Source of the DNA: Nibricoccus sp.
Lineage (GTDB): Bacteria; Verrucomicrobiota; Verrucomicrobiia; Opitutales; Opitutaceae
Assembly: GCA_047602425.1 (NCBI GenBank)
Contig: JASGHG010000001.1
Location: 2,720,001-2,784,000 of the forward strand
DNA: 64,000 nt
Reading direction: 5' to 3'
In this document: positions 2,932 to 57,176 of the stretch, in pieces
Layout of the letters: every line of letters starts with the position of its first letter
Position numbering within the stretch: the stretch's first letter is position 1
Made by a program: the position numbers and the translations under genes
The notes under the pieces: generated by a model
Databases searched by the model: none
Told to the model about the DNA's origin: nothing
What the model saw: only the letters and a program-made list of their open reading frames with translations

Positions 2932-2942
2932 AAGACGCCCGT

Positions 2943-2969
2943 AACGTTGGTTCGTCGGGCTGCGTTTCA
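2943..2969 (-). promoter_or_regulatory. Putative ECF-sigma promoter upstream of amt (TGAAAC-N17-CGTT)
   Basis: Motif read on the minus strand, ending 11 nt before the ATG; the same pattern recurs elsewhere in the window. Confidence 0.4.
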
Positions 2970-3331
2970 GCGGCACACGCTTGCGCCTTTGTGGATTGCA
3001 GGCGGTTTGGGAGCGTGGCGAGCTGGCGTCAGCCCTGTCCAGATACGGGAACTTGTGAGGCTAGCGCCGAAAAAGCGGATGAATAGCCTTTATCCAATGA
3101 AACGTTTTCATGGTGGCCCCAGCATCGATAGCGCTAAGATGCAAAGATCGTTAATATATATTTATAAAGGAGTAATGACGTGCCTGAAATCTTTTCACGA
3201 AGATGATGCGCCATATAAATGACAACCTCGCACTGGCCTAAAAATCCCGCAACCAGAAGGCCGCGACCGGAAATTCATGTTCCTTATTGGTCTGAGTTTG
3301 CATTCACTCTTTCCATAATTTTCTCGTTCTT

Positions 3332-12684: not shown

Positions 12685-12786
12685 GAAGTGGAAAGAAATG
12701 AAAGACGCCGCGCGCGTTGGCAACACGGCGGCGTCAGGAAAACTGCGGCGGGCGGGACGACGGGCGTGTTGTCCGCTGCGCTGACG

Positions 12787-13773
12787 TTACTTGGACGTCA
12801 GCGTCATATCCTCCATGAGAGCAAGTGCGGTGGCTTCCGTGATATCGCGCACATCGTATTGACGGGCGACGCGACCGGCTTGCTGGCCACGACCGAGAAT
12901 GTCGGCCGAACTCGCTTGGCCGATGATGGCCGAATCAGAAAGACGGACGGCTGTAACCTGAATATCGGGCACCGAGACAACTTTGTCTTCGGAGACGCCG
13001 GTGACTGTGACGTTGCGGCTTGCGACGAGAACCTCGATGGCGACATCGGCCACTTTGGCGAGCGCTTCGCGGTCTTTGCGAGCGGCGTCATTGGCGGGGG
13101 CGACGAAATGATCGAGCGGTTTGTCGGCGATGAGCGAAGCGGCGACTTTTTGGTCGGCCAGCGCGGCGCCGGCCATGCGGAACGGACGGCCGAAAAGGCG
13201 TTCGACTTCACGCACAGTCTGCTTGTCGGCGAGCGTGGGCGCGGTTTTGTCGCCGGCGGTGTAGGTGTTTTGCGCGGAGACCGTGGTGCTCTTCGATTCG
13301 GAGGAGCCTTTACCGTGTCTGGCCGCGTCGTCGCGATTGCCAGTGCTGCCATTGACGACCACGTTGACCTGCGTTTGCGGCGCCGTGGTGGTGCCGGCTG
13401 GTTTGGGATCGCCCTCGAAATTGGATTTCTTTTCGCTTAGCGTGGATTCGGTTTTTTCCGTGCGACCGGAGAGCTTCAAGCCGGCGTTTTCATCGACGAG
13501 CTCGCGGTTGACGAAGAACAGCACGCGGGGCTTGTTGAGTTTTTCGTAAGTGCCACGAAAGGCGTCGATGACTTGTTTGGCCTTTTCTGGAGCGACCAGC
13601 GTACCCGATGGGCCATAGAGACGTTGGGCGGTTTCGGGTGTTTCGGGCGGTGGTGGAGTGGTGACGGGATAGGCCTGTTTGATCGGGACGGGAGGCTCGG
13701 GTTGATCGGCCGCAAAGGCGGGCGCCGAGACCGAGGCCGCGAGGACGAGGGAAAGCGTGAGACGGGTTTTCAT
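12787..13773 (-). CDS. Exported protein, probable CsgG/LpoB-like alpha/beta fold with a low-complexity insertion
   Basis: Signal peptide; 'KPRVLFFVN', 'VADVAIEV', 'AVRLSDSAIIG' strand pattern. Confidence 0.5.
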   Translation of the reverse strand: MKTRLTLSLVLAASVSAPAFAADQPEPPVPIKQAYPVTTPPPPETPETAQRLYGPSGTLVAPEKAKQVIDAFRGTYEKLNKPRVLFFVNRELVDENAGLKLSGRTEKTESTLSEKKSNFEGDPKPAGTTTAPQTQVNVVVNGSTGNRDDAARHGKGSSESKSTTVSAQNTYTAGDKTAPTLADKQTVREVERLFGRPFRMAGAALADQKVAASLIADKPLDHFVAPANDAARKDREALAKVADVAIEVLVASRNVTVTGVSEDKVVSVPDIQVTAVRLSDSAIIGQASSADILGRGQQAGRVARQYDVRDITEATALALMEDMTLTSK

Positions 13774-30944: not shown

Positions 30945-31067
30945 TGGCTGCGAAGTGAAACGAGGAAGTAGACATGCCTAGCCACTGGGCGGCGGCAGGC
31001 GAACAAAAAGACAGCGATCGCAGTTTGCCTTTGCGCGCCCGGTGCATTTCATGGCGCTTTTTCCCGC

Positions 31068-31826
31068 ATGAAACTTGTCTCGTGGAACGTGAATGGCGTG
31101 CGCGCCGTGCTTAAAAAGGATTTGTTGAAGATCATGGATGCTTTTGACGCTGACGTGATTTGTTTTCAGGAAACCAAGGCGCATCCAGGCGATGTGCAGC
31201 ATGTAGCCTGGGCGCATGGCTACGAGGCGTTTTGGAACTCGGCGGTGAAAAAAGGCTACAGCGGCACGGTCGTCTTCACGCGGGAAAAACCGCTCAACGT
31301 GACGAATGGCATTGGTTCGGCCGCGCATGACGGCGAGGGGCGCGTGATCACCGTGGAGTTTGCCGATTTTTATCTGGTTAACGTCTACCAGCCGAATTCG
31401 CAGCGCGGGCTCACGCGGCTCGACTACCGCGTGAAGGAATGGGATCCGGCCTTCCGCGCCTACCTCAAGAAGCTCGACAAGAAAAAGCCGGTGGTCTTTT
31501 GCGGCGATCTCAACGTGGCGCACACCGAGATCGATCTGGCCAATCCGAAGACCAACCGTCGCAACGCCGGATTCACCGACGAGGAGCGCGCGAGTTTTTC
31601 CGCGCTGCTGGCCGAGGGGTTTGTCGATACGTTTCGCGAGTTCGAAAAAGGCCCCGGCCATTATACTTGGTGGAGCCAGATGGCCAACTGCCGGGCGCGC
31701 AACATTGGGTGGCGCGTCGATTACTTTGTCGCTAGCGAAAGGTTTAAGCCATCGCTTAAGAAGGCATTTATCAGTCCCGACGTGATGGGCAGCGACCATT
31801 GCCCGGTCGGATTGGAGTTGAAATGA
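31068..31826 (+). CDS. xth: Exodeoxyribonuclease III / AP endonuclease
   Basis: Motifs 'SWNVNG', 'QETK', 'CGDLNVAH', 'GWRVDY', 'GSDHCP'. Confidence 0.96.
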   Translation: MKLVSWNVNGVRAVLKKDLLKIMDAFDADVICFQETKAHPGDVQHVAWAHGYEAFWNSAVKKGYSGTVVFTREKPLNVTNGIGSAAHDGEGRVITVEFADFYLVNVYQPNSQRGLTRLDYRVKEWDPAFRAYLKKLDKKKPVVFCGDLNVAHTEIDLANPKTNRRNAGFTDEERASFSALLAEGFVDTFREFEKGPGHYTWWSQMANCRARNIGWRVDYFVASERFKPSLKKAFISPDVMGSDHCPVGLELK

Positions 31827-38536: not shown

Positions 38537-41026
38537 TTACTTCCGACGCGCAGCTGCTCGCATCGCGATTGCTGCGCTCAAAGCTGCGAAATACCAGAGT
38601 CCGACCGCTCCACCACCACCGCTGTTACCTGGGGCTGGAGATGGCGCGGGCGCGCCCGACGAAGAGCTACTTGAGCTGCTCGAAGAGGAGGATGACGAGG
38701 AACTTGAGCTGCTGCTCGAAGAAGAGCTGGAGGATGACGACGAACTAGAGCTGCCATTGGCCGTCAGGACAGCGACTCCCATTTGAGTGACGCCGCTCGA
38801 CGACGCAGTTGTTCCCGACAGCAGCAAGCGGCCATCGTCCGCAAAAGAAATCCCGTACGCGAACCGGTCCGTCAGATCTGGAACAGAAAAATTAGTATCC
38901 AAGGTGCCATCGGCGTTCAACCGGACGACGCCGCTCACGGAGACGCCATTGTACGAATCGAAGTCGCCGGAAACAACCACGCGTCCGTCGGTTTGAATGG
39001 CGATAGCTTCGATGTCTGGATTGGAGCCACCCAAGGTAAAACCAGTGCCGGTCGCAAATGTTGTATCCAGCGTGCCGTTTGTATTCAGACGAGCAATACC
39101 GTTGCGGGATGTGCTGTTGAACGTCGAGAACGAGCCGCCGGCAAGAATACGACCGTCGCTTTGCACCGCGACGGCGGTTACCGTCCCATCGAATCCGGTG
39201 CCAGGCGAAAAAGAGGTGTCGAGACTTCCATTGGTATTTAGGCGTGCGATGCGGCCCCGTGAAGTGCCATTGAAGGAAGTGAATGAACCGCCGGCCACAA
39301 TTCGGTTGTCCGACGGCTGCAGCGCTATCGCATACACGTAAGAGTTGAACCCTGTTCCGACGTTGAACGCGCTATCGGCCGTTCCGTTGGAGTTGAGTCT
39401 CACAATGTAGTTTTGCGATGCATCGTCGTACGTGGAGAAAAAGCCGCCCACCACAAGGCGTCCATCGGGCTGTTGTACGATTGAAGTAACACCTCCGTTG
39501 AATGCAGTGCCGGGATTGAAACTGGTATCGCGCCCTCCGTCGGCGTTGAAGCGCGCAATTCGATTCAAGGACACACCATTTAGTTGAGTAAAGAAACCGC
39601 CCACCACGATTCGATCGTCGGCTTGCACGACCACCGTATTGACGTCGCTGCCGCTAAAGACGCTGGTGTTGAAGGTGGTGTCCAACGTGCCATTGGCGTT
39701 CAATCTCGTGAAGTAATAACGAACGATATTGTTCACTAAATTGAAGGAGCCGCCTACAATAAACTTTCCATTTGCAAGAGGTACAATGTGGGCGGCGCCC
39801 GCGGTCCGTGAATTGCCGCTTAGCGCGGTGTTCAACGCCCCCATGGAGGTCAAACGGGCGATCCCCGGGGTGGCTGTGCCATTGAAATTTAGGAACGATC
39901 CACCTGCGATAATGCCGCCACCCGATTCGATCATGAGAGCATAGACGTTGCTGTCGAACCCAGGGCTAGGAAGAAACGTCGGATCTACTGTACCATCGTT
40001 TTTCAGGCGAATGATATTGCTCCGGGCGATGCCATTATAACTGGAGAAAAATCCCCCGGCCAAAATCATGCCGTCGGATTGCAGCGCCACGGAAGCGACG
40101 CTGCCATTAAATCCGGAGCCTATGACAAAACTTGTATCCAGCGTGCCATCGGTGTTGACGCGTGCGATGTAGTTTTGCGCGGTTCCGTTGAACTGCCCAA
40201 AAAGTCCCGCCGCGATGATCTTTCCATCGGATTGCAGGGCTACGGAAGAGACAGAGGAATCAAAACCCGTGCCAGGATTGAAGGATGAATCCAAAGATCC
40301 ATCGGAATTCAGGCGGGCAATACCCGTGCGAGAGGCGCCGGTGCTCGGGATAAACAGTCCACCAGCGATAATTTTTCCACCGGATTGCAGTGCCAGTGAA
40401 AACACAGTTCCATTGAATCCGGTCGGCGGAACGAATGTCGTGTCCAAGGCTCCCGTCGATGTTAGCCGGGCAAGACCACGGCGCGTCGTTCCGTTGTATT
40501 GAGTGAAGGTACCACCTGCCAAAACAGATCCATCTGATTGCACGGCGAGAGTGCGCACGCGGCCGTTGAAACCGCCGCTGGTGCTGCGAAACGTCGAATC
40601 AAGCAACCCATTTGGGAGCAGACGCGCAATGCCGCCACGAGCCGAACCATTCACCTGGGTAAAATCACCGGCGATCAAGATATACCCGTCGGATTGAACT
40701 GCTATCGCACGGATGCTGCCATTCGGCGCGAGGCTGGAACTAAACGCCAAGTCCAAGGTGAAGTCGGAATTGAATTTGGCGACATAGCTGCGCGATCTGC
40801 CTGCGATGGTTGTGAAGTCGCCACCAACGATAAAACCGCCGTCCGAGGTTGCGGCGACGGCATTGATGATCGCGTTGCTTTCCAGCGCGGTCGCAAATGT
40901 GGGATCGACCCGATAGGTATCCCCATAAGTGATCGCTGCTTGAGCGAGGGCGGTCCCGAAGAAAATCCCGAGAAAACCGAATTTGAAAAGAAGGGTCACT
41001 ACACCACCAAAAGAAGATGATTTCAT
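38537..41026 (-). CDS. Secreted delta-60 repeat beta-propeller protein with poly-Ser linker and GlyGly-CTERM-like anchor
   Basis: Signal peptide; 13 full plus one split 'V..Q.DG.I..GG.F...NG.....IARL..DG.LD..F' repeats; 32 Ser; tail 'GGGGAVGLWYFAALSAAIAMRAAARRK'. Confidence 0.88.
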   Translation of the reverse strand: MKSSSFGGVVTLLFKFGFLGIFFGTALAQAAITYGDTYRVDPTFATALESNAIINAVAATSDGGFIVGGDFTTIAGRSRSYVAKFNSDFTLDLAFSSSLAPNGSIRAIAVQSDGYILIAGDFTQVNGSARGGIARLLPNGLLDSTFRSTSGGFNGRVRTLAVQSDGSVLAGGTFTQYNGTTRRGLARLTSTGALDTTFVPPTGFNGTVFSLALQSGGKIIAGGLFIPSTGASRTGIARLNSDGSLDSSFNPGTGFDSSVSSVALQSDGKIIAAGLFGQFNGTAQNYIARVNTDGTLDTSFVIGSGFNGSVASVALQSDGMILAGGFFSSYNGIARSNIIRLKNDGTVDPTFLPSPGFDSNVYALMIESGGGIIAGGSFLNFNGTATPGIARLTSMGALNTALSGNSRTAGAAHIVPLANGKFIVGGSFNLVNNIVRYYFTRLNANGTLDTTFNTSVFSGSDVNTVVVQADDRIVVGGFFTQLNGVSLNRIARFNADGGRDTSFNPGTAFNGGVTSIVQQPDGRLVVGGFFSTYDDASQNYIVRLNSNGTADSAFNVGTGFNSYVYAIALQPSDNRIVAGGSFTSFNGTSRGRIARLNTNGSLDTSFSPGTGFDGTVTAVAVQSDGRILAGGSFSTFNSTSRNGIARLNTNGTLDTTFATGTGFTLGGSNPDIEAIAIQTDGRVVVSGDFDSYNGVSVSGVVRLNADGTLDTNFSVPDLTDRFAYGISFADDGRLLLSGTTASSSGVTQMGVAVLTANGSSSSSSSSSSSSSSSSSSSSSSSSSSSSSSSSGAPAPSPAPGNSGGGGAVGLWYFAALSAAIAMRAAARRK
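38657..38752 (-). repeat. Poly-serine coding tract (32 codons, all six Ser codons used)
   Basis: Translated by hand from the minus strand. Confidence 0.9.
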
Positions 41027-42036: not shown

Positions 42037-44124
42037 ATGACCCCTGCAGGATCCTTTTCTAAATGGCCGCGCGTGCTCGCATGGAGCGCGGTGTCGCTGG
42101 CTGGCGTGTTTTCTTTGGCGGTGTTGGCCTGGTCGAGAGGCGAGCCAGTCAACGCATTGTGGGTCGTGATCGCGTCGGTATGCGTGTTCGCGATATCCTA
42201 TCGGTTTCACAGCGCCTGGTTGATGGCAAAGGTGCTCACACTCGACGAATTGCGGGCGACGCCGGCGGTGGTGCATGAGGACGGACGCGATTTCGTGAAG
42301 ACGAATCGTTGGGTGGTGTTTGGGCATCATTTCGCGGCGATTGCCGGGCCGGGCCCGCTGGTGGGGCCGGTGCTGGCGGCGCAATTTGGATTTTTACCGG
42401 GTCTTTTGTGGATGTTGATTGGTGCGACTTTAGGCGGTGCGGTGCACGACTCGGTGATTTTATTCTGTTCGACGCGGCGGCGCGGAAAATCGCTCGGACA
42501 AATGATCAGTGAGGAAATCAATCCCCTGGCAGGCATAATCGCGTTAGTGAGCATTTTGGCGATTTTAGTTATCTTGATCGCAGTGCTGGGACTGGTGGTG
42601 GTCAACGCGCTGGCGGAAAGCCCCTGGGGCCTGTTCACAATTGCGGCGACGATGCCGATAGCGGTTTTCATGGGGCTGGCGATGCGCGGCGCCGGGCACA
42701 ATTCCAAGGCATTGCTTTGGATCAGTGTGCTGGGTGTGGTGGCTTTACTGGCGTCGGTCTACGCGGGAAAGTTTGTGCATGATTCGGCGACTTGGTCGGC
42801 GGTTTTCACTCTGAAAGGCACGACGCTGGCGTGGTGGATGATCGGCTACGGGTTGCTGGCTTCGGTGCTGCCGGTGTGGCTGTTGCTCGCGCCGCGCGAC
42901 TACCTGAGCACGTTCATGAAAATTGGAACGGTTGCACTGCTGGCGGTGGCGATTGTGGCAATAGCGCCGATGTTGAAAATGCCATCGGTCACGAAATTCG
43001 TCGACGGCACGGGACCGGTGCTGGCCGGGTCGGTTTTTCCTTTCTGTTTTATTACGATCGCATGTGCCGCCGTGTCGGGTTTTCACTCGCTGATCTCATC
43101 GGGCACGACGCCAAAAATGATCACGCGCGAGAGCGATATCCGGGTGATTGGTTATGGTGCGATGGTTACGGAGATGCTGGTCGGCGTGATGGCGTTGATC
43201 GCGGCATGTGCGATGGAGCCGGGTGAATATTTTTCGGTGAATATGAAAGGTACGCCTGCGGTGGTCGTGGCAAAGGTGACCGCGCTGGGATATCCGGTGA
43301 CGGAGGCGCAGATGGCGTCGCTTGCGGCGGACGTGGGCGAACAAACCATGATTGGGCGCACGGGCGGAGCGCCGACGTTTGCAGTGGGCATGGCCAAAAT
43401 CTTTTCGAGCGTGCTTGGCAGCAAAGCGGCGCTCGCGCTGTGGTATCACTTTGCGATCATGTTCGAGGCGTTATTTATTCTCACGACCATCGACGCGGGA
43501 ACGCGGGTGGGACGATTCTTGATGCAGGATTTGCTGGGGCGGGTGTGGTCACCCCTGGGGCAGACTCGTTCGACCGTGGGCAATGTGGTGGCGAGTGCGG
43601 CGTTTGTTGCCGCTTGGGGTTGGTTTTTGTACGCAGGTGTGATCGATCCGCTCGGCGGCATCAACAGCCTCTGGCCAATCTTCGGCGTGGCCAACCAGTT
43701 GCTCGCCGTGCTGGCGCTGGCGCTCGGCACGACGGTGTTGATCAAGATGGGGCGTGTACGGTATCTCTGGGCGACGATTGGACCATTGATCTGGTTGCTT
43801 GCGGTAACGATGACCGCGGGCTGGATGAAGATTTTCAGCGGCGATCCTCGTGTGGGTTTCCTTAGGGCCGCCGCGGATCTCCGGGCGAAAATCGCCGCGG
43901 GCGGCACAAGCGCCGGCCAGGTTGACGTCTGGCAGCATCAGCTGACCAATAGTTATGTCAACGTCGCGGTGACGGGCGCTTTCATGTTTTTGGTTCTGCT
44001 GGTTGTTTTGGTTTGTGCGCGTGAATGGTGGCTTTTGCTGGGGAAGCATCGCCAGCCAGTGTTGCGCGAGGAACCTTACGTAACGTTATCGGCTGAGGAG
44101 CGAGGCCAGTTGCTCGCGCGGTGA
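42037..44124 (+). CDS. cstA: Carbon starvation protein A family transporter (CstA/BtsT)
   Basis: Motifs 'FGHHFAAIAGPGPLVGP', 'PVWLLLAPRDYLS', 'SGFHSLISSGTT', 'GRTGGAPTFAVG'. Confidence 0.95.
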   Translation: MTPAGSFSKWPRVLAWSAVSLAGVFSLAVLAWSRGEPVNALWVVIASVCVFAISYRFHSAWLMAKVLTLDELRATPAVVHEDGRDFVKTNRWVVFGHHFAAIAGPGPLVGPVLAAQFGFLPGLLWMLIGATLGGAVHDSVILFCSTRRRGKSLGQMISEEINPLAGIIALVSILAILVILIAVLGLVVVNALAESPWGLFTIAATMPIAVFMGLAMRGAGHNSKALLWISVLGVVALLASVYAGKFVHDSATWSAVFTLKGTTLAWWMIGYGLLASVLPVWLLLAPRDYLSTFMKIGTVALLAVAIVAIAPMLKMPSVTKFVDGTGPVLAGSVFPFCFITIACAAVSGFHSLISSGTTPKMITRESDIRVIGYGAMVTEMLVGVMALIAACAMEPGEYFSVNMKGTPAVVVAKVTALGYPVTEAQMASLAADVGEQTMIGRTGGAPTFAVGMAKIFSSVLGSKAALALWYHFAIMFEALFILTTIDAGTRVGRFLMQDLLGRVWSPLGQTRSTVGNVVASAAFVAAWGWFLYAGVIDPLGGINSLWPIFGVANQLLAVLALALGTTVLIKMGRVRYLWATIGPLIWLLAVTMTAGWMKIFSGDPRVGFLRAAADLRAKIAAGGTSAGQVDVWQHQLTNSYVNVAVTGAFMFLVLLVVLVCAREWWLLLGKHRQPVLREEPYVTLSAEERGQLLAR

Positions 44125-46021
44125 CGGGATGGACGGCCCTGAAAATCGTTGTGACCGACCTAGCGCGCACCGGCATTGGCCGGGGGCTTGATCCGTTTTG
44201 GTGTAATTTGATGACAAAACGGACGAGCGAAACAACCTCGTCATCGGAGAGGTATTCACGTCCGGCCATCGGGGTGTTGGGCTGGCCAAATTTGACGATG
44301 CGGGCGAGTTGCAACTCTTTCGAAGGGTCGGACTCGGTGGTGTGTCGCCACGGGTCGCGGGTAAAGTCCGGGGGACGTAAGCTGAGTTGCGACGCGAGCG
44401 GTCCATCGCCGCGTCCTTCGACGCCATGGCAGCTGGAGCATAGTTCGGTGAAACGCTTGCGCTGTTTTGTTTCGGTAAAGATGGTTGCGCTAGGCGAAGG
44501 ACGCCAAGCCTGCGCGGTCTCGGCGCGGATCGTGACGTCGTCATCGCCGAGTGTTCCGAGGTAGGCGACGAGCGCGGGACCGCGTGGATCATTTTCTTTG
44601 AAAAGATGCGCGTAGGACGGCATGCGCGAATCCGGGGTGAGGCTTCGCGGAGCGATCAAGTGGAGACGGTTCCATTCGGCGGTCCGCCGGCTGGCGATTT
44701 GCGATAGATCGGGGCCTTGACGACGGTTGCCATAAAGTGGCGGTTTTTGGGGCAGACTTTTGGCCAGCGGAATTGCGGAACCCCAACGTTCGACGTCGGC
44801 TGTGCCGGGGCGCACGTATTGCGAATGGCAGTGAATGCAGCCTTCGGAAATGTAGATCTCGCGTCCAAGTTTGACGATCGAATCGTCGGCCCTGCTGTCC
44901 GGGGGATATAGAAGAACGATTGCGAGCAAAGGCAAAGAACCCGCAACAGGGCGCAGGCGCCTGATTCCCCAGTGGCGAACCAGAAGGGCCAAACACGCAA
45001 CCACGGCTGCACTCACGACAAACGAGAGTGGAATTTCATGCAGCGATTGCACCATGCCAATTCCCATGGCGGAACCAAACCAACCGGAAGCGGCAAAAAG
45101 CAGCCCCGCCAGCCAGGCGCGGCCGCCTTGCGCAGGGTAGAAGACGAGTGCCGTCGAATAGATTGAAACGCCGGCGGTGTACAGAACACGAGTTGCGGAA
45201 GGGACGTCGTTGTTTTGGCAGAGCAGCACGCAGGCACCAAGCAGGACGACCAGCGCAATGCCGATGGCCAGTGGTTGCAGTTTGCGGTCGAGCAGCAGGC
45301 CTGCAATCACGGCGGCACCGAGATGGACGAGGGCATTTTGTTCCAGCACGGAGCCGCCCTGCCAGGTCGCGATTTTTAGATGTGGACTGTGCTGAAGGAT
45401 GAAGAAGGCAGCCGAGTCGATCCACACCAGGGTGAGAAATAAAACCACCCACACCGCGACAATCCGTGGGTGATATTCAGGAATGGCGGGCTTTTCGACC
45501 GGCGTGCTTCGGACGCGAAACGAAATCAATAGACCGACTAAAGCGGCTATGATTGCGACAACTGTTTGAACTTGCGGTGAGGCGTTGAAGATGGGTGGCT
45601 GGTTGCAAATCGCGTAGGCCAGCCCGGTGCCGACGCCACAGCAAAGACCGAGATGTTTAATCCCCCCGGTGGGCCGCAAGCAGAGCACGAGCGACACCGT
45701 CGTCCAAGCGAGGCTGCCGCCGACGGCGACAGCGGAGACAATAGCTAACACTTGGTTCTGGGCGAGCAGGCTGAGTCCGGCCGCGAGTCCGCAACTGGCA
45801 AATCCCAAGGTGAGTTGACGGGAGCCAATGCTTTCGCGAAACCATTTGGCAGCGGCAACACTTCCGCCAATTCCGGCGAGTCCGAGTGCCGCCATCAGCG
45901 GTTTTAAGCCGGCTTCCTGCACGACGGCGCGCAGGTTTTCGATGAATGCGAATTCGGCGAAGATCAGAAAATACACATAGACCGCTGCAATCGCGAGGAT
46001 GCTGGTGAGGGCATCCTTCAT
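43982..46021 (-). CDS. Fusion: MFS-like multi-pass membrane domain + CcoO/FixO-like cytochrome c + second class I cytochrome c domain
   Basis: About 12 hydrophobic helices with 'AGLLLDRK'; 'GCIHCHSQYVRP', 'GNRRQGPDL', 'PDSRMPSY' (CcoO-like); 'CSSCHG...NTPM' second haem. The C-terminal ~65 aa look like read-through. Confidence 0.82.
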   Translation of the reverse strand: MKDALTSILAIAAVYVYFLIFAEFAFIENLRAVVQEAGLKPLMAALGLAGIGGSVAAAKWFRESIGSRQLTLGFASCGLAAGLSLLAQNQVLAIVSAVAVGGSLAWTTVSLVLCLRPTGGIKHLGLCCGVGTGLAYAICNQPPIFNASPQVQTVVAIIAALVGLLISFRVRSTPVEKPAIPEYHPRIVAVWVVLFLTLVWIDSAAFFILQHSPHLKIATWQGGSVLEQNALVHLGAAVIAGLLLDRKLQPLAIGIALVVLLGACVLLCQNNDVPSATRVLYTAGVSIYSTALVFYPAQGGRAWLAGLLFAASGWFGSAMGIGMVQSLHEIPLSFVVSAAVVACLALLVRHWGIRRLRPVAGSLPLLAIVLLYPPDSRADDSIVKLGREIYISEGCIHCHSQYVRPGTADVERWGSAIPLAKSLPQKPPLYGNRRQGPDLSQIASRRTAEWNRLHLIAPRSLTPDSRMPSYAHLFKENDPRGPALVAYLGTLGDDDVTIRAETAQAWRPSPSATIFTETKQRKRFTELCSSCHGVEGRGDGPLASQLSLRPPDFTRDPWRHTTESDPSKELQLARIVKFGQPNTPMAGREYLSDDEVVSLVRFVIKLHQNGSSPRPMPVRARSVTTIFRAVHPVTARATGLAPQPITLRKVPRATLAGDASPAKATIHAHKPKQPAEPKT

Positions 46022-46031
46022 GCTCGGCTGA

Positions 46032-46454
46032 TCAGACGCTTGAGCTATTGACGGCGGAGGCATTGCTCGCGGCGAGTTTTTTGACGAGCCAGAGTTGGAA
46101 TCCGACGAGGGCAAAGTCGGTGGCGGGTACGCTGATCCATGCGAACGACAGCCAGCCAAGCGCGATGGCCGTTCCGGAAAAGGCGCCGGCAGAAATCCGG
46201 AAGAGGATCGTGAGTTCGAGCGTCAAACGCAGGCGATCGGGCCCGCCACGAACCAAGGCCCAGAGGTAACACGCGCCGACCGCGCCGACGAACGCACCGA
46301 CAAATCGCAGATAAACGAGCGCCTCGCCTTCAGGCGTAGCCACGCGCATCAAGGGCAGGACGAGGCGCGGAAAGAAGACGAGCCCCAAGCCGGTGCAGAG
46401 GTCGAGAGCTCCGGCGACTAGAGCGAGAAGGCGGGCAATGGAGGGGATGGGCAT
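46032..46454 (-). CDS. Small four-TM membrane protein
   Basis: 140 aa with four hydrophobic segments; 11 and 10 nt from its neighbours. Confidence 0.75.
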   Translation of the reverse strand: MPIPSIARLLALVAGALDLCTGLGLVFFPRLVLPLMRVATPEGEALVYLRFVGAFVGAVGACYLWALVRGGPDRLRLTLELTILFRISAGAFSGTAIALGWLSFAWISVPATDFALVGFQLWLVKKLAASNASAVNSSSV

Positions 46455-46465
46455 CGTGAAGCAGA

Positions 46466-47767
46466 CTAAAGATTGCGCTCAAGAAATCGAGGACGTTGCA
46501 AAAACCAGGACAGCGACACCGCCCACATGACCAGTCCGGCCACGAGGCGGATGCCATAACAGGTTTGCGACCAGCCGCGACTAAGGAAGAGCGAGCTGGG
46601 ATCGGTGTACTCGGTCCAGCCTAGCGCGGCCAGCGCGACAATATGCAAGCCCAACGCTCCCTGCCACACATGGAAACCGCGCGTGATCGGACGGTCGGGG
46701 TCGAGCAGATTGAGGATCGCGAGGTTAAAGCAGGTGACGAGACCGGCGAGTGCGAGGTGGGCGTGAGCCACGAAGCCATTGGTGAATTTCAATCGCTCCG
46801 AAATACCGGGCAGGAAAAAGACGAAGCCGGAAATCACCAGCAACAACCACCAGAAGAAGGCTGCGACAAGCCAGCGTCGGGCGACGGAAGGCCAAAGATA
46901 GCCGTGAAAATGCTGCCAGCCGAGTGGTATCCACATGGCCAATACGCCAAGCCCGGCCTGTTGGGAGGCGCTCTTGCTTGAGGCGTGACCATGGCTGATC
47001 ACCAGATACACCGCTACGGAGATCGCGTACATCGTCCAGAAAGTGCTTTGGCGCTGGCGAACGTCGGCGGTGCGTGCCGGGACATCCAGCAGGAGCGGAA
47101 TGAGTCCGTAGATGGCGATGATGCCGAGCGTGGAGGCCAGCAAACTTGCACCGGTTGCGCCTCCGCTGTCAGGGTTGACTGGCGGATACACCTCGCGTCC
47201 CGAGGCCCAAAAGAGCGCCGGCGGAACGGCGAGCAACAATAGCAAAAAACCGAACTGGGAAAGCCGCTCCAAAGTTTTTAATGCGCGCCGGTTTGTCCAA
47301 AATTGCCAGACGAGCCCCAGCCAGAGAACGGTCATCGCCGCCGGCAGAAGCGGGCGCGCCCAACCATCCCAGTCGATGAAGATTTTTCCGCTGCTGAGGC
47401 CGCAGAGCCAGGAAATGCCGGCGGCCGCTAGGGCCAGCGACCACGCTCGCAAGGCCACCCGGTTCAGCCGGGCCGTGCTCGCATTTGGGCCGCGGCCAAT
47501 CCAACGGAGCAAGACGCCCACGAGCGGCAGCGAGCACCAGCCGTAGAGCTGCCAGTCGAGGTGGAGGGGGATCCAGCGTCCGTAGGTAAAGGGCGCGAGT
47601 TTATCTCCAAGCGCGGGCCAGAGTAACAAGATCGCCAGCAATACGCCCACGCTGTTGGCGGCGACGAGCCAGAAAAGGCTGTGCCGGGATACGCTTCGGG
47701 CCAGCGAGATCCAGGCCGCGGCTTGGGCGGGCGGAACTGGCCGGGGGACATCGCTCATGGCAGGCAA
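46466..47767 (-). CDS. Divergent CcoN-like haem-copper oxidase superfamily subunit I lacking a canonical CuB site
   Basis: 'TYGRWIPLHLD' ~ CcoN 'SFGRLRPLHTN'; 'GLSSGKIFID' ~ 'GFTSSKEYAE'; 'KFTNGFVAHAHLALAG' ~ 'HYTDWTIGHVHAGALG'; 'IRLVAG' ~ 'VRMIGG'. Start may be 47758. Confidence 0.8.
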   Translation of the reverse strand: MPAMSDVPRPVPPAQAAAWISLARSVSRHSLFWLVAANSVGVLLAILLLWPALGDKLAPFTYGRWIPLHLDWQLYGWCSLPLVGVLLRWIGRGPNASTARLNRVALRAWSLALAAAGISWLCGLSSGKIFIDWDGWARPLLPAAMTVLWLGLVWQFWTNRRALKTLERLSQFGFLLLLLAVPPALFWASGREVYPPVNPDSGGATGASLLASTLGIIAIYGLIPLLLDVPARTADVRQRQSTFWTMYAISVAVYLVISHGHASSKSASQQAGLGVLAMWIPLGWQHFHGYLWPSVARRWLVAAFFWWLLLVISGFVFFLPGISERLKFTNGFVAHAHLALAGLVTCFNLAILNLLDPDRPITRGFHVWQGALGLHIVALAALGWTEYTDPSSLFLSRGWSQTCYGIRLVAGLVMWAVSLSWFLQRPRFLERNL

Positions 47768-47773
47768 GGCCGT

Positions 47774-48451
47774 TCACTCTTCCGTGAGTTGGCCGTCGCG
47801 CACCCGGATGCGACGATGGCAGGCCTCGGCAAAACGCCTCTCGTGGGTCGCAAGAATCACGGCGATACGACTTTGCTCCGCGAGTGTGCGTAGGAGCGCG
47901 AAGACGGTTTCGCCGGTTTTTTCGTCGAGGGAACCGGTGGGTTCGTCGGCAAGGATGATGTTGGGCGAATTCATGAGCGCGCGGCAGATGGCGGTGCGCT
48001 GGCGTTCGCCGCCGGAAAGATCCTGAATGCGGTGATTGAGCCGGTGGCCGATGCCGACTTGTTCGGCAAGCTCGCGAAGGCGATTCGCAGCCACAGCGGG
48101 CGCCATTCCTGCGGCAATGGCGGGCACGCGGAGGTTTTCCACCACGGTGAGATCGGCGATGAGATTGTGCAGTTGAAAAACGAACCCAAGATGGCGCCGG
48201 CGAAGGACGAGGCGATCGGTTTCGCTGCGCGGGTCGAGCGAGCATACGCGCAGTTCGCCACTGTCGGGCAGGTCGAGTCCGCCGATCAGATGAAGCAGGG
48301 TGCTTTTTCCGGAACCGGACGATCCCCACAAAGCGACGAGTTCGCCCGCGCCGACTTCGAGGTTGGCATCGCGCAACACGGAAATAGCGCCCTTGTCGTA
48401 GGTTTTCCAGACGCTGCGTACGGAAACAAGATTTTGGCCGGGACTATTCAT
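47774..48451 (-). CDS. ABC transporter ATP-binding protein (LolD/MacB-like)
   Basis: Motifs 'GSSGSGKST', 'GFVFQ', 'LSGGERQR', 'ILADEPTG', 'ATH'. Confidence 0.96.
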   Translation of the reverse strand: MNSPGQNLVSVRSVWKTYDKGAISVLRDANLEVGAGELVALWGSSGSGKSTLLHLIGGLDLPDSGELRVCSLDPRSETDRLVLRRRHLGFVFQLHNLIADLTVVENLRVPAIAAGMAPAVAANRLRELAEQVGIGHRLNHRIQDLSGGERQRTAICRALMNSPNIILADEPTGSLDEKTGETVFALLRTLAEQSRIAVILATHERRFAEACHRRIRVRDGQLTEE

Positions 48452-49556
48452 AGCGCAGGGCTTCCGCAGGTTGAATGCGCGAGGCGAAACGCGCGGGATA
48501 AATGGCACCGGCCACGGCTGTGCCGATGGCGGTGAGCACGATGCCGACGACGATCAGCGGTTGGACGCTGGCCTGAATGTAGCCGTGGAATTGCGGTACG
48601 TTTTGAAGAATTCCGAGGACCGCGATGCCGAGCGAGAAACCGAGGACAAGTCCGGCGAGTGCAATGGCGATGGCTTCGCCAAAAATCAGCGCGGCCACCT
48701 GACCGGTGGAGAAGCCGCAGACGCGAAGAATGGCGATTTCGCGGATGCGGCTGAAAACGGAGAGCAGCATTGTGTTGGCCACGCCGAGCCCGCCGAGGAG
48801 AAACGCGCAGATGCCGACCGCCCACGCCGTGAAATGCAGGATTTTGAACTGCGTGTAGCTCTGGTTGAACTCGCGGTTTTCGAGCGCGATGAGTTTGGGA
48901 TATTTTGCTTCGATGGCGGCCTTGAATTGGGCGCCGGTTTTTTGGTCGCGAAGTTTTACGGCGATGATGGAGCAGGCGTTTTCCTTATGAAAAAATTCCT
49001 GAGCATCCTTGAGCGGCAGGAAGACGCCGCCGTCCTCGAAGCCGTTTTCGGTTTTGAAAATACCGCCAACCTTCAGCTCGATTGCGCCGATTTCCAGCAT
49101 TGCGCCGGGCTTGGCTTCAAGAAACTCGGCGGCGCGCGAACCGAGAAAAATTTCTCCATCGTTTTTACCGAACCTTTCGCGTGAGCCAAAACGCCATTCG
49201 GCTTTTGCGAGCCGCGGATCGGCTGGATCGACGCCGAAGCAGGTGATGATCGGATGTCCGGGTGCGGAAACGATGCCGAAAAGCAGCGGATTGGCTGATT
49301 CGACCTCCGGCTGGGTTCGGACAGCGTCGACCTGCTCCATCGTGACGGAGCTGAAGAACAGATCGGAAACGTTGCGTTCGAAAACGAGATAGTGGCTGTC
49401 GGTTGCCAGGATGCGCTCGAACATGCCGATCGCACCGGTGACGATCGCGAGGATCGTGAGCATGGCGGCCACGCCGAAGCCGATGCCGGCGACGCCGATG
49501 GCGGCGCGGATGCGGTGACGACGAAGGTTGATGAGGATCAGCGAGAGCAGACGCAT
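48444..49556 (-). CDS. ABC transporter permease (MacB/FtsX family)
   Basis: TM1, large periplasmic domain, then three TM helices; 'RIREIAILRVCG', 'YPARFASRIQPAEALRYE'. Confidence 0.93.
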   Translation of the reverse strand: MRLLSLILINLRRHRIRAAIGVAGIGFGVAAMLTILAIVTGAIGMFERILATDSHYLVFERNVSDLFFSSVTMEQVDAVRTQPEVESANPLLFGIVSAPGHPIITCFGVDPADPRLAKAEWRFGSRERFGKNDGEIFLGSRAAEFLEAKPGAMLEIGAIELKVGGIFKTENGFEDGGVFLPLKDAQEFFHKENACSIIAVKLRDQKTGAQFKAAIEAKYPKLIALENREFNQSYTQFKILHFTAWAVGICAFLLGGLGVANTMLLSVFSRIREIAILRVCGFSTGQVAALIFGEAIAIALAGLVLGFSLGIAVLGILQNVPQFHGYIQASVQPLIVVGIVLTAIGTAVAGAIYPARFASRIQPAEALRYE

Positions 49557-49595: not shown

Positions 49596-50156
49596 TCAAG
49601 CGCCGCCCGCGACGCGTCCTTCAAGGTGAAATTTGATCTTCAGCAGAGGGTTCACCTTGAGCATGCCGAACTTTTTGAAAATCGGTAAGCCGTAGTCTTG
49701 CGTATCCAGCGGGAATTCACTGTCGAGTTTACAGGTGCCGTCGGTTTGAATCAGGATGGTGACGGGGAAACTGATTTCCTTGGTTACTCCGTGCAGTGTG
49801 AATTTTCCATTGGCATTGTAGAGGTCGCCTCCAACGGGTTTAAGCGAATCCATCACATAGAGGCAGTCGGGAAATTTTTCGGTTTCCTGCCAGTGGTTCA
49901 TTTCAACGTCGCGTTTGTCCTTGCCCGTTTTCACATCGGTGAAACGGAATTTGACTTGGGCACTTTCAACGCGTTTTGCCGCGGGATCGACCGCGATGGC
50001 GGCGTCATATGCGGGAAGACTGGCGGTAAAACTATCCATGGTTGCCTTCACCGCGACCTCGATTTTGGAGCGATCCTTGTCGATGGTGAGAGGAACGGCA
50101 AACGATGGCAGTGAAGCGAGCACGAAGAGTGCGGTGGAAAACAGGAGATTTTTCAT
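49596..50156 (-). CDS. YceI-family periplasmic lipid/polyisoprenoid-binding protein
   Basis: Signal peptide; 'TGKDKRD', 'GKFTLHGVTKEI', 'DYGL'. Confidence 0.9.
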   Translation of the reverse strand: MKNLLFSTALFVLASLPSFAVPLTIDKDRSKIEVAVKATMDSFTASLPAYDAAIAVDPAAKRVESAQVKFRFTDVKTGKDKRDVEMNHWQETEKFPDCLYVMDSLKPVGGDLYNANGKFTLHGVTKEISFPVTILIQTDGTCKLDSEFPLDTQDYGLPIFKKFGMLKVNPLLKIKFHLEGRVAGGA

Positions 50157-50281: not shown

Positions 50282-52303
50282 TTACCGGGGCGTATGAGCG
50301 ACCACGAGCTCCTTTGTGAGGTGCATCGAGTTGGCGGCCGCGGTTTCAGCGGGCGTCAGTGCGCGGTAGAGGCGGTTCTTGTAAAGATAACTCGCGGTTT
50401 GGTAGTACGCGATGGTTTCCGGGATGTCGTCGCAGCTGTTGTCGCTGCGTGGGGTGAGCGTGAACGTGTTGGGATTGTAGCTATATTGGGTGGTTCCCCG
50501 GACGGGTTTCAAGACTGCGAGCATGCCCGGCTCATAAAGGCCAAGACGCTGGTAGTTGCCGATGAGGGCCCGGCGGTCACCGGTGGCGCGGCGAACGTCC
50601 CACCCGAAGAAGCGACTTGGATAAGACCAGTTGAGCAGGCCGAGCAGCGTCGGCGCGTAATCAACCTGGCTGGTAAGGTCGGCAATGTGGCCGGGGGCGA
50701 TCTGGCCGCCGGGCGCGTAGACGAACAGAGGAATGTGATAGTTCTGTACGGGTAGTTCGGTTTTTCCGGCGGAGGAGGCGCAGTGGTCGGCAACGACGAC
50801 AAAGACCGTGTTTTTAAACCAAGGGCGGGTCGAAGCCTCGCGGATGAACTGGCCGATGGCGAAGTCGGTGTATTTCACTGCGCCGGCCCGACCGGAGATT
50901 TTCGACGGCAAGTCGATTTTACCCTCGGGGTAGGTGAAGGGCCGATGGTTCGAAGTGGTCATCACGAAATGGAAAAACGGTTTTCCCTCGGCGGCGGCGC
51001 GGTCCGCCTCGCGCAGGGTCCAACGGTAAAGATCCTCATCGCAGGCGCCCCACGCATTGGCGAAGGTGATGTCGCTTTTCGCAACCCCGGCGCGGTCGAC
51101 AACGCGATAACCATTGTGACCGAAGAAATAGTTCATGTTGTCGAAGTACCCGTAGCCGCCATAAATGAACGCAGTATCGTAGCCTTTGCTTTGAAAAACC
51201 GAACCAAGGGTGAACAGGTTTTCATTGTGCGGGCGTTTGACGAGTGAGCGGCCCGGGGTGGGGGGAATCGAGAGCGTGAGGGCTTCCATGCCGCGGTCGG
51301 TGCGTGTGCCGGTGGCGTAGAAGTTGTCGAAGACCAGGCTTTGACGGGCGAGAGCCTCCAGTTCGGGCGTAAGCCGCGACGCGCGGTTGAAGATGCTGAG
51401 AAAATCGGCGCTCAGGCTTTCAACCGTGATCTGGATGACATTGAGTTTTAGTTCTGGACCCTGGTTTTTGACGAAGCGGAGCGTATCCCGGGGATTGTTG
51501 CCCAGAGGCATGCTGCCGTCGTAGGCGAGCTCGGAATGCAACTTTTTGAAAGCCTCATCGAGCGGGAGCGTCGCGTAAAACTGGTCGTAATCGAGTTCGT
51601 TGTTGCGGAAGGCGGCGAAGAGCGACCAGACGCCGTTTTTGGCGAGCTCGCGATTGTAGTTATTGGCGAACGACGGCAGGCGGTCTGAGTCCAGCACGAT
51701 GCCCGCCACGAGCGCGGCGCCGAACCAGCCGCAAGCTCCCAACCAGCGTTGCCCGGCGCTTTCGGTGGCGTCGTCCAGCCAGCGGCGAACCCAGCCGGTG
51801 CGCAGCACGAAGGCATAGGCGGCGATCGTGACGGCAAAAATCCCGGCGAAGATCCAGGGCATCGGGTAGGATTCGCGGATGTTGTCGATCACCTCGTGGG
51901 TGTAGACGAGATAGTCGACTGCGATGAAATTGAAGCGGGCGCTGAACTCATCCCAGAACACCCACTCGGAAACCGCACCAAAAAGACAGAGCCAAAGTGC
52001 GCCCATGAGGCATAGGTGGGCGAGCCCCCGCGCCCAGAGTCTTTCGAAAAACCGCGCGGGCAGCGCCGTGAGCAGCAGGATCACCGGCAGCGCGAACAAC
52101 AGGCTTGCGCCAAGATCGAAAAGCAGGCCCCAGGCGAACGCGGCTACCAAACTGCTGTCGAAGCTGACTGCGGCGACGGATTTTGCCAGCAAAGCAAGCC
52201 GGGTGGTCAGGGAGACCGCGCCAAAAAGCACGAGGAATATGAGCACGCCGCCGTGCCGCCGTTCAAGAAGGCGAAAAAAGGTCGAACGCAAAGGAAGTCG
52301 CAT
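50282..52303 (-). CDS. LTA synthase / sulfatase family membrane protein
   Basis: Five N-terminal TM helices; 'ITVESLS', 'TGTRTDRG', 'TTSNHRP', 'VADH'. Confidence 0.92.
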   Translation of the reverse strand: MRLPLRSTFFRLLERRHGGVLIFLVLFGAVSLTTRLALLAKSVAAVSFDSSLVAAFAWGLLFDLGASLLFALPVILLLTALPARFFERLWARGLAHLCLMGALWLCLFGAVSEWVFWDEFSARFNFIAVDYLVYTHEVIDNIRESYPMPWIFAGIFAVTIAAYAFVLRTGWVRRWLDDATESAGQRWLGACGWFGAALVAGIVLDSDRLPSFANNYNRELAKNGVWSLFAAFRNNELDYDQFYATLPLDEAFKKLHSELAYDGSMPLGNNPRDTLRFVKNQGPELKLNVIQITVESLSADFLSIFNRASRLTPELEALARQSLVFDNFYATGTRTDRGMEALTLSIPPTPGRSLVKRPHNENLFTLGSVFQSKGYDTAFIYGGYGYFDNMNYFFGHNGYRVVDRAGVAKSDITFANAWGACDEDLYRWTLREADRAAAEGKPFFHFVMTTSNHRPFTYPEGKIDLPSKISGRAGAVKYTDFAIGQFIREASTRPWFKNTVFVVVADHCASSAGKTELPVQNYHIPLFVYAPGGQIAPGHIADLTSQVDYAPTLLGLLNWSYPSRFFGWDVRRATGDRRALIGNYQRLGLYEPGMLAVLKPVRGTTQYSYNPNTFTLTPRSDNSCDDIPETIAYYQTASYLYKNRLYRALTPAETAAANSMHLTKELVVAHTPR

Positions 52304-55534: not shown

Positions 55535-56098
55535 TTAAATTGGTTTGAGGTGTAAACTATTTTGTAGGCTGATTTTCTTTTTTCCTCGGAGCAGCCGCCT
55601 GACGCGCCAGCGTTGCTCCTTGTTCACGATGTAGCCGACGCAACGTTTGGCGCCGCAGCGGCAGGGGTGCAGGCGCCATTCGGCGTAAGGGAAACCATAG
55701 TCGAAAGTGAGTTCCTCGCCGACGGCGATGTTGCGACGGGCGACGATCCAGATGTGACCGCCAATGTTGTCGGCACGGCAGTTTGGCGCACAGGAATGGT
55801 TAATCAGGCGAGCGATGTTGCGCACGGAGCGGCCATCGAGGTCGTGCGTTTTGTTGAGATCGAAGATGTACACACAATCGTCGCCGCCTCGCTTTTGGCG
55901 TTCCAAGCGTTGTTCTTCGCGTTTGCGCGATTCGGCTTTGGTGATGCGTTCACCCGTATACTCGATCACCCGTGTGCCGTCAGGGATGTCGCATCGGGCA
56001 TAAACGCCGCGGCCATGAATCGCGGACTGACGGGCGGAGATCCAGCGGCTGGTGACGTGCTTGGTCGTTTTCTGCTTTTTTGGGGAAAGGCGGGCCAT
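55535..56098 (-). CDS. SET-domain protein-lysine methyltransferase with post-SET Cys motif
   Basis: Motifs 'IHGRG', 'RLINHSCAPN', 'GEELTFDY', 'CRCGAKRC'. Confidence 0.92.
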   Translation of the reverse strand: MARLSPKKQKTTKHVTSRWISARQSAIHGRGVYARCDIPDGTRVIEYTGERITKAESRKREEQRLERQKRGGDDCVYIFDLNKTHDLDGRSVRNIARLINHSCAPNCRADNIGGHIWIVARRNIAVGEELTFDYGFPYAEWRLHPCRCGAKRCVGYIVNKEQRWRVRRLLRGKKKISLQNSLHLKPI

Positions 56099-56204
56099 GG
56101 TCGGACGTAAGGGCCGGAAACCATACGATCGCGCGGTCGCAAAACAAGCCCGACTCAAAGCTCATGCGGGGAAGCCTGCGACGCTGCCTGCCTGGATCGA
56201 AACG

Positions 56205-57176
56205 TTATTTCTTTCCCGCGGGAGCGTCGGACGGTTTTTTTTCTGCGGTGGGCTCGTCCATCTCGATGACCTTGAGTTCGCCGGCGCCGACCGTGCCTTT
56301 ACGGTTGATGCGTTTGTCGACGATGGTTGGTTCGTTCATTTCGCGGCCGAAGTAGGATTTACCGCTGGAGACGAGCGTCGGGATGGTCTCGGAGATTGAA
56401 AGTCCCTGGGCGGGCGTACTCATTTTTGTCCGCCAGAGCAGCTTGCGCTCGCCCTTGGCGAGTGCACCGGCATCGTAAGCGGAAACGACGACAAAATAGC
56501 AGTCGTCGAGAATTTGGTCGACCAAGCTGCGATTAAGTTCGGTGCGGACTGAAAACATGTACACCGGGTCGATCCCGATGGGTGCGGCATTTCCGGGCAC
56601 CGTTGCTCGTTCGCGGTCGATCAAGGCGGCCTCGAATTCCTTGGCGAACTTTGTGCCACCGACAAGTTGGGCGCGCGAAAGGAGGTTGCGGTGTCCCACG
56701 TCGCGAAAACCGCCCATGTCCGTTTCCAGATCGGCTTTGTCCAGCCGGGCATGCACACCCCAAAAATAAAAGAGCGCGAGAGTGGCGGGATGGTCTTTAT
56801 CCGCGAGATTGTAGTGTCGGCTGGCAAAAGAACTTTGGATAAACCGCTGCAGGTCCTCTTCCGGAACTTTGCCGGCATCGTCGACGCCATGGCCGCGGTG
56901 CTGATAACCCATCGAATTGATGATGTAGTAAGACGGCTTTTCCGCCGTGGGCGGGGGCAGTTTTTTGCCCTCATCCGTCATTTCCGTGATGACGGAGATG
57001 GCCAGAAGCGGGTGCGATTGAAGGGCGGTGGGAAGCAGCGAGGAGAAAAAATAGGACCATTCCTTCCGCCGCTCTTCGGCCGTGCGAGGCGATCTGGAGT
57101 CGGCCGCGGCGACAATCGTCGATGCGGCAGACAGGCTGACGATGCACAACAACAGCTTGGGCAGGGTTGCTTTCAT
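56205..57176 (-). CDS. Exported hypothetical protein (possible DUF4136-like fold)
   Basis: Signal peptide; 'YFVVVSAYD...LLWRT' strand pattern. Confidence 0.6.
   Translation of the reverse strand: MKATLPKLLLCIVSLSAASTIVAAADSRSPRTAEERRKEWSYFFSSLLPTALQSHPLLAISVITEMTDEGKKLPPPTAEKPSYYIINSMGYQHRGHGVDDAGKVPEEDLQRFIQSSFASRHYNLADKDHPATLALFYFWGVHARLDKADLETDMGGFRDVGHRNLLSRAQLVGGTKFAKEFEAALIDRERATVPGNAAPIGIDPVYMFSVRTELNRSLVDQILDDCYFVVVSAYDAGALAKGERKLLWRTKMSTPAQGLSISETIPTLVSSGKSYFGREMNEPTIVDKRINRKGTVGAGELKVIEMDEPTAEKKPSDAPAGKK

Follow-up and report, generated by a model that had tools for sequence, protein, structure and literature searches.

What can a cbb3 oxidase subunit I do without its copper site? 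In characterised haem-copper oxidase (HCO) subunits, to our knowledge, O2 or NO is the substrate and is reduced by a pair of metals. The question is raised by an open reading frame (ORF) on the minus strand (47767-46466) of a 64,000-nucleotide stretch of the Nibricoccus sp. genome (contig JASGHG010000001.1, positions 2,720,001 to 2,784,000; hereafter, the window). A first-pass annotation, made from the sequence alone, had described the product as a CcoN-like protein that keeps its haem ligands and has lost the canonical CuB site. Every motif quoted there was found in the ORF, which encodes 433 aa from a TTG codon or 430 aa from the ATG at 47758, the likely start.

Haem ligands and the former copper site

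The protein has the 12-transmembrane catalytic-subunit fold of the HCO superfamily. Used as a single sequence, it gave no significant match in a Protein Data Bank (PDB) search, no match to the curated cbb3 model TIGR00780, and a sub-threshold match to the Pfam model COX1 (PF00115; E 7e-4, 19 bits vs a cut-off of 34.8). With a family profile the homology became significant, and CcoN was the sole PDB match (E 2e-11). The COX1 comparison that the annotation had proposed as a check was sub-threshold for the protein alone, and the family profile supplied the significant match. At ~15% identity to CcoN, the protein is a descendant of cbb3 subunit I and belongs to the HCO superfamily by fold.

Landmarks were taken from a profile-profile alignment of the family to 31 CcoN sequences from the same genome set and are given in the numbering of the window protein. 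CcoN residues are numbered as in P. stutzeri, from the 3MK7 alignment, and site geometry was read from the alignment register. The roles of the CcoN residues (haem ligands, CuB, proton channel, proximal Glu) are those we take them to have. Family counts refer to 398 pooled, partly redundant sequences of at least 370 aa, and tree counts to 195 non-redundant members.

46466..47767, minus strand: 12-helix membrane protein derived from CcoN and lacking the canonical CuB site (fold, family profile, profile-profile alignment)
47561..47563, minus strand: His69, equivalent to CcoN His60, low-spin haem b ligand (His in 397/398; confidence 9)
47372..47386, minus strand: KIFID loop (CcoN KEYAE), with Lys kept, E122 changed to Ile and E125 to Asp (alignment)
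47123..47164, minus strand: GGATGASLLASTLG, covering the helix VI cap and the first part of that shortened helix, with nearly invariant Thr205 and Ser212 (alignment)
47147-47149, minus strand: Ala207 at the position of the CcoN CuB ligand His207 (alignment and 19 relatives)
46973..46993, minus strand: His259-Gly-His261-Ala-Ser-Ser264-Lys265, spanning the helix VII terminus and the loop; CcoN His257/258 is matched by His259, and most relatives have His-His at 264-265
46904..46915, minus strand: QHFH (residues 285-288), cytoplasmic end of helix VIII, unconserved and rejected as a ligand set
46757..46765, minus strand: His335-Ala-His337, equivalent to CcoN His345 (haem b3) and His347 (haem b); His in 398/398 and 316/398

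As the annotation had proposed, the haem ligands of helices II and X are retained, with CcoN H60, H345, and H347 corresponding to H69, H335, and H337 at an alignment confidence of 9. The protein also shares with CcoN the 12-helix fold over its full length, the motifs GR..PLH, GK..[DE], and [KH][FY]T...H.H, and a CcoO/FixO-type cytochrome partner.

The CuB ligand H207 of CcoN aligns with A207 (confidence 4), and H257 and H258 with H259 and G260 (confidence 2), such that the H207/H257/H258 triad of C-family oxidases is incomplete by sequence register. All four of H207, H257, H258, and Y251 were present in 31/31 CcoN sequences, H207 by construction because the set was extracted by its GHN motif. 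A207 lies in a 'TG-A-S' context, and its register is supported by 19 relatives with Gly-His-Ser/Asn at exactly this position, 19/19 of which also have H259. Helix VI is ~11 residues shorter than in CcoN, spanning 21 rather than 32 residues from the GAT cap to the closing proline. Since the His residues of the protein are those at positions 29, 69, 259, 261, 286, 288, 335, 337, 366, and 375, at most two (H259 and H261) lie near the old CuB site, and on this inventory the window protein cannot form a three-His CuB or FeB site. The annotation had named such a three-His arrangement as grounds for abandoning its reading, and none was found by register. It was also right about the helix VI His and the missing adjacent His pair in helix VII, but H259 is probably the remaining former CuB ligand from that helix.

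In the available text of PMC11214002, the FeB site of cNOR, qNOR, and nNOR consists of three His plus a Glu. Helix VI of the window protein has neither His nor Glu (A207, A211), and the conclusion that it fits neither an oxidase nor a NO reductase (NOR) was borne out. The cross-linked His-Tyr cofactor (Y251 in CcoN) is likewise unconserved, with no Tyr in columns 249-256 in 148/195 rows. Y254 could be the old cross-link Tyr under the register of the annotation; its column has Tyr in only 62/398 family sequences, and the partner His is gone.

Other CcoN residues are replaced as well, R57 by I66, E122 by I129, H337 by K327 (nearly invariant, 395/398), and E323 by S313, the last agreeing with the reported change of 'EG' to 'SG' in helix IX. 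The Ca-binding loop has lost E122 as described, but it retains an acid at the position of E125 (D132; D/E in 384/398). The positions of CcoN Y223, H243, Y317, and the proximal E323 are not conserved in the family (alignment confidence 2-7), and the proton-channel residues are apparently not kept; S212, at CcoN T215, is nearly invariant, and the window protein has Y220, again at a confidence of 2-7. The QHFH motif, which the annotation had offered as a source of alternative ligands, was rejected: predicted helix VIII closes with this motif, at what CcoN topology makes its cytoplasmic end, His occurs at 286 in 55/398 sequences, and the commonest residue at 288 is Arg.

Selection and variation across the family

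A single-sequence search identified 777 homologues among 8000 candidates scored, and a profile search gave 200 clusters at 50% identity (E up to 1e-30). The family is monophyletic, with 100% SH-like support against 7 CcoN sequences (FastTree, 195 members). Compared with the orthologue from a same-genus genome (G168), the window gene has a dN of 0.33, with synonymous sites saturated at a pS of 0.78. Protein identity to 13 more distant genomes was 44-57%, against 46-57% for an HH-bearing control. The gene is under purifying selection, and the other outcome that would have counted against the annotation, a decaying copy beside ligand-intact homologues, is contradicted by dN relative to pS and by the lack of a rate increase compared to outgroups.

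The CcoN-like gene was found in 16/301 genomes of the phylum, including 12/26 other genomes of the same taxonomic family, and in only 1/4 same-genus genomes. A scan of Acidobacteriota genomes found it in 2/301, a count that may be too low as only 5 candidates were scored per genome. Canonical ccoN was above cut-off in 17/20 other carriers, and the window genome itself encodes three oxidases with intact ligand motifs: one of A type, a CcoNO fusion, and a second CcoN located next to alternative complex III. The set following the alternative complex III genes (G000:C1:3268977-3271782, L003) comprises ligand-intact CcoN, CcoO, and cytochrome c. Its CcoN is the only paralogue in the window genome matched by the family profile (E 3e-12), and it may resemble the ancestor of the CcoN-like family.

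Residues on the distal side differed from clade to clade. On the 195-row tree, His was gained or lost 31 times in column 259, 23 times in column 264, and 34 times in column 265, with zero changes at His335. The Opitutaceae-type pattern combines H259 with a loop pair, H264-H265, which is present in 102/120 of the closest sequences and gone in 14/15 top matches in the window's own clade. A group with names such as Thermoanaerobaculia has H250 in 102/105 sequences and four His in 71/105. The Acidobacteriaceae clade (Terracidiphilus names; L094-L173) has E211 and E250, mostly with a further Glu at 73. It has lost H337 to Leu or Phe in 79/79 loci scored (of 80 fetched), and its members possibly hold one haem or use different ligands. 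Loci L051, L052, L067, L068, L074, L080, L081, L177, and L178 have a helix VI His (GHS/GHN) together with H259 and Asn264, and this clade is a possible intermediate with two of three CuB ligands. With the distal His columns varying by clade, no distal His is needed family-wide, but some clades could have rebuilt a metal site.

This variation limits several statements of the annotation. It had asked whether homologues consistently lack the helix VI His: H207 is present in 0/120 of the closest and in 19 relatives. The description 'di-haem b', itself a prediction for the window protein, does not extend to the whole family, given the missing second helix X His in the acidobacterial clade. Nor can the distal side be called vacant throughout the family. 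For compensation between His207 and His264 there were at most 3 independent pairs, too few for statistics. In the ESM Atlas, a 91-member cluster of ~428 aa (commonest in Chloroflexota, COX1 in 46%; feature score 0.91) and a 348-aa Nitrospirota cluster (TM 0.55) are possibly further divergent HCO families.

A conserved gene neighbourhood

Across the family, the CcoN-like gene belongs to a conserved operon that also encodes a prenyl-diphosphate synthase, a YceI protein, a Lol/MacB-type ATP-binding cassette (ABC) transporter, a small membrane protein, a fusion of a major facilitator superfamily (MFS) domain with CcoO and cytochrome c, and a two-component system. The set is common to two phyla, Verrucomicrobia and Acidobacteria, in different order. 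Where a cbb3 operon has ccoQP and ccoGHIS, YceI, ABC, MFS, and prenyl synthase genes are found here. The window contains the following neighbours:

50282..52303, minus strand: LTA-synthase-like sulfatase-family membrane protein, upstream and outside the conserved core
49596..50156, minus strand: YceI-family periplasmic polyisoprenoid-binding protein (PF04264, E 2e-20; best PDB match 5IXH, BcnA)
48444..49556, minus strand: MacB/Lol-type (FtsX-like) ABC permease, the most conserved operon gene
47774..48451, minus strand: LolD-like ABC ATPase, whose likely ATG overlaps the permease stop
46032..46454, minus strand: small membrane protein with a weak DUF4345 match, fused to the CcoN-like C-terminus in some relatives
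43982..46021, minus strand: MFS-fold domain, CcoO/FixO cytochrome c (CxxCH, Met ligand motif), and a second cytochrome c domain (PF02433, E 4e-28; PF00034)

Neighbours were counted in the best 80 of 240 genome loci and in acidobacterial loci, only where the contig leaves room. In the former, the ABC ATPase was present in 74/76, the permease in 72/74, the prenyl synthase in 55/68, YceI in 50/52, the small membrane protein in 64/77, the MFS domain in 64/71, and CcoO in 68/68. The acidobacterial counts, in the same order, were 66/66, 52/52, 47/47, 31/31, 63/63, 54/54, and 47/47; in these loci YceI has moved to the operon end, and the two-component pair is divergent upstream in 37/45 long loci. 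The MFS domain is split from CcoO or located elsewhere, with the synthase absent, in L020, L030, L037, L040, L042, and L182.

The permease is far more conserved than the haem protein, with 89% identity to the same-genus orthologue vs 63% for the CcoN-like protein, a length of ~370 aa in both phyla, and invariant periplasmic motifs, a pattern that suggests a fixed cargo. Its nearest matches were LolE/LolF (1e-18), with a weaker match to 7W78 (5e-8), which we take to be HrtB. The transporter shares with the LolCDE/LolDF and MacB extractors an FtsX/MacB_PCD permease, a LolD-like ATPase, and a periplasmic lipid carrier; it differs in that all matches fell below family cut-offs, the permease is a single 370-aa protein, and the carrier is YceI rather than LolA. 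According to the available text of PMC9113575, the cargo of YceI proteins is an octaprenyl compound or ubiquinone-8, and in defence against lipid peroxyls and peroxides these proteins act together with a b-type cytochrome that has two haems. The LcoA-BcnA pair described there likewise links a YceI lipocalin genetically to a membrane b-type cytochrome. The present system would be analogous in function only: it differs in having a cytochrome of HCO fold with a c-type partner in place of b561, and in adding a prenyl synthase, an ABC extractor, and an MFS domain. No cytochrome b561 domain was detected among the operon proteins scanned.

The operon prenyl synthase has Ala-Ser before its first Asp-rich motif, which points to a product of at least C20. 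Of the 5 genomes tested, the 3 with the full operon have it as a third prenyl synthase copy; the window genome and G168 have two copies. Phytoene/squalene synthase (PF00494) was absent in 5/5 genomes, and carotenoid or hopanoid use of the operon synthase was rejected. Orthologues of the operon synthase and regulators were not found in the window genome. Loss of the loop His pair showed no link to loss of the synthase or regulators (HH+/synthase+ 52, HH+/- 11, HH-/+ 11, HH-/- 4; 78 loci, some redundant).

The cytochrome fusion carries the CcoO-type subunit expected of C-family oxidases, with PF02433 above cut-off; for its MFS domain, a fold search returned the MFS fold and no specific family or substrate. 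It runs ~65 codons beyond the usual end (43982-44124, 90 residues after the last Met motif, against a median of 25 across 119 loci), and 143 bp of it are shared with the 3' end of the convergent cstA. The two-component genes were probably deleted here, leaving this overlap as the trace. Where present, the operon sensor kinase and regulator were nearest to heavy-metal models, below cut-off. The LTA-synthase-like gene is possibly co-transcribed with the operon; a promoter and terminator scan placed a promoter-like site upstream of it at chance level. In 14/81 loci a lipid A phosphatase-like PAP2 gene (e.g., L004:4761-5543) lies upstream on the same strand, and these two neighbours provide an envelope-remodelling context. 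A link to denitrification was rejected, with nirK above cut-off in 1/5 genomes and neither nirK nor nirS in the window genome or its same-genus relative.

Possible functions of the CcoN-like family

From the fold, ligand pattern, purifying selection, and conserved gene set we infer each step of the mechanism proposed here. Four-electron O2 reduction is not expected in a protein that lacks CuB, the Tyr cofactor, and apparently the proton channel; the missing Tyr is used as a criterion against O2 reduction in the available part of PMC11214002. The constant company of a prenyl synthase, a lipid-extractor-type ABC transporter, and YceI points to an isoprenoid substrate. We therefore tentatively favour, while stopping short of calling it probable, a haem enzyme formed by the CcoN-like protein and its CcoO-cytochrome c partner, which would carry out redox chemistry on an isoprenoid lipid or a lipid peroxide at the periplasmic face of the inner membrane. 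The protein is predicted to hold haem b through His69/His337 and a haem b3, five-coordinate, through His335. Electrons would pass from the two His/Met-ligated c haems to haem b and then b3, as in cbb3, and the shorter helix VI would open the distal pocket of b3 to lipid. Haem b3 could then perform one- or two-electron, peroxidase-like chemistry, which a cytochrome c donor suits better than O2 activation. The prenyl synthase would provide a C20-type isoprenoid, to be extracted by the Lol/MacB-type transporter and loaded onto YceI; in the window lineage, which has lost the dedicated synthase and the regulators, the lipid would have to come from a housekeeping synthase. The module might protect or remodel the envelope under two-component control, akin to the LcoA cytochrome b561-BcnA (YceI) pair.

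The annotation had left open an electron conduit, a gas sensor, or a catalyst of different chemistry, and of these the last fits best, since H335 is never lost and the gene company is that of isoprenoid lipids. The family as a whole may thus represent, with somewhat less than even likelihood, an undescribed envelope machine in which a geranylgeranyl-derived lipid is made, moved by the MFS domain, redox-processed at a copper-free b3 wired to cytochrome c, and extracted by the Lol-type transporter onto YceI, with the distal pocket rebuilt in at least 4 ways by clade. If true, this would be the first HCO catalytic subunit with an organic substrate. A widespread and conserved family that has no fixed second-metal site would broaden the chemistry known from the superfamily and reveal what its scaffold does in the absence of copper. 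A literature search that did not cover subscription journals found no description of the family or operon. The HCOH families of Pei et al. (2014), including NnrS, could include it; they are said to have the HCO fold with reduced His sets, most keeping two His and one haem.

Published data on acidobacterial 'cbb3' genes may bear on this reading. We translated the qPCR primers for Terro_4248 (Terriglobus roseus) and ACP_0885 (Acidobacterium capsulatum) from the PMC8407424 supplement and compared them with the family. The primer peptides match family motifs, with reverse primers fitting xxWW and xAMAGF, and product sizes of 283 and 338 bp place the forward primers on matching stretches of 81 clade sequences and not of 31 canonical CcoN. 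The gene order given in the available text of that study (ccoN, an unknown cco gene, ccoO) agrees with the family operon. Both genes appear, from these matches, to be members of the CcoN-like family. In Data Set S2 of PMC8407424, expression of both is low; the ACP_0885 transcript changes by a log2 fold change of -2.7 at 0.1 uM O2 and -3.6 at 0.001 uM, and Terro_4248 by -1.1 (not significant) and -1.5 as O2 falls. The two genes are counted as high-affinity oxidases in the accessible portions of PMC5900883 and PMC8407424. The authors of the latter call it unclear whether the acidobacterial 'cbb3' enzyme no longer contributes to proton motive force. Family membership, if true, would explain the puzzling non-induction of these genes at nanomolar O2, and would mean that surveys of soil Acidobacteria and Verrucomicrobia genomes may credit them with too much microaerobic respiration. 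Many family members carry the database label 'cbb3-type subunit I'. If the family does lipid redox chemistry, some genes called 'high-affinity oxidases' would be misnamed. Cultured carriers exist, so the family is open to direct experiment.

Several observations weigh against lipid redox chemistry. Alignment confidence is low (2-4) for the registers of helices VI and VII, and near the old site other clades carry three or four His, or Glu, with which they might bind a metal. The operon synthase is missing from the window genome, its same-genus relative, and 13/68 loci with room, and L076, L174, and L176 have the synthase, CcoN-like protein, small protein, and MFS-CcoO with no adjacent ABC pair. 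The nearest sensor-kinase model is of heavy-metal type, though below cut-off. The fall in expression at low O2, as reported in Data Set S2, would also fit an oxygenase, and in the part of PMC11636273 available many A. capsulatum peroxide-defence genes rose at low O2. A biosynthetic oxygenase or oxidase, in which b3 would convert a precursor derived from geranylgeranyl into a new isoprenoid product for export by the ABC transporter and YceI, is somewhat unlikely in our view.

We consider it unlikely that His250, His259, His264, and His265 (or Glu211 and Glu250) replace the triad in a rebuilt metal site, which would make the family a gNOR-like NO/O2 reductase or scavenger and the window copy a stripped form. 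The window's clade lacks those residues and is still under selection, no distal His is conserved across the family, the 207/264 swap rests on 3 origins, the window genome and its same-genus relative have no nirK or nirS, and the lipid genes would be left unexplained. The available text of PMC11214002 names cNOR/qNOR and the newer eNOR, sNOR, gNOR, nNOR, NOD, and a putative N2O reductase, and describes gNOR as the first of all families in which an active-site His has been substituted. The CcoN-like family is not among the families named there, and its profile matches CcoN only. Unlike these families, it has no fixed His set at all and no conserved Glu in the window clade; gNOR, eNOR, sNOR, and bNOR are of B-family origin with a cupredoxin/CuA-type subunit II, whereas the partner here is a FixO cytochrome c. 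A pure electron conduit, which would do no chemistry at b3 and only link YceI-bound or membrane prenyl-quinol to the pool of cytochrome c in the periplasm, would draw on the intact ligands of both c haems and haem b in the window genome and on the binding of ubiquinone-8 by YceI proteins in the available text of PMC9113575. However, an invariant single-His b3 ligand combined with loss of the second haem b ligand in a whole clade is the opposite of what a wire would need, which makes a conduit quite unlikely.

The HrtAB-HssRS system combines an FtsX-type permease with a two-component system, and this likeness, the heavy-metal models nearest to the kinase and regulator, the His-rich periplasmic loop, and the MFS domain would suit a metal- or haem-handling module, or a gas or redox sensor for the linked two-component system (HrtAB/HssRS-like or copper-related). 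We find this very unlikely, as the heavy-metal matches were below cut-off, the permease is much nearer LolE/F than 7W78, and the window genome retains the haem protein with the regulators lost. A decaying or vestigial cbb3 copy would account for the loss of the loop His pair, synthase, and regulators in the window lineage and for the extension of the cytochrome fusion into cstA, but it is extremely improbable given the open frame, the substitution rates described above, and a monophyletic family of this size.

Elsewhere in the window, five ORFs of 273-606 aa (1960-4348, 11620-13440, 30978-31799, 56205-57176) had no Pfam match at E 1e-5. A bacterial SET-domain protein is encoded at 55535-56158, and an 829-aa protein at 38537-41026 combines 11 DUF5122 beta-propeller repeats with a long poly-Ser linker and, at the C-terminus, a hydrophobic sorting-like tail.
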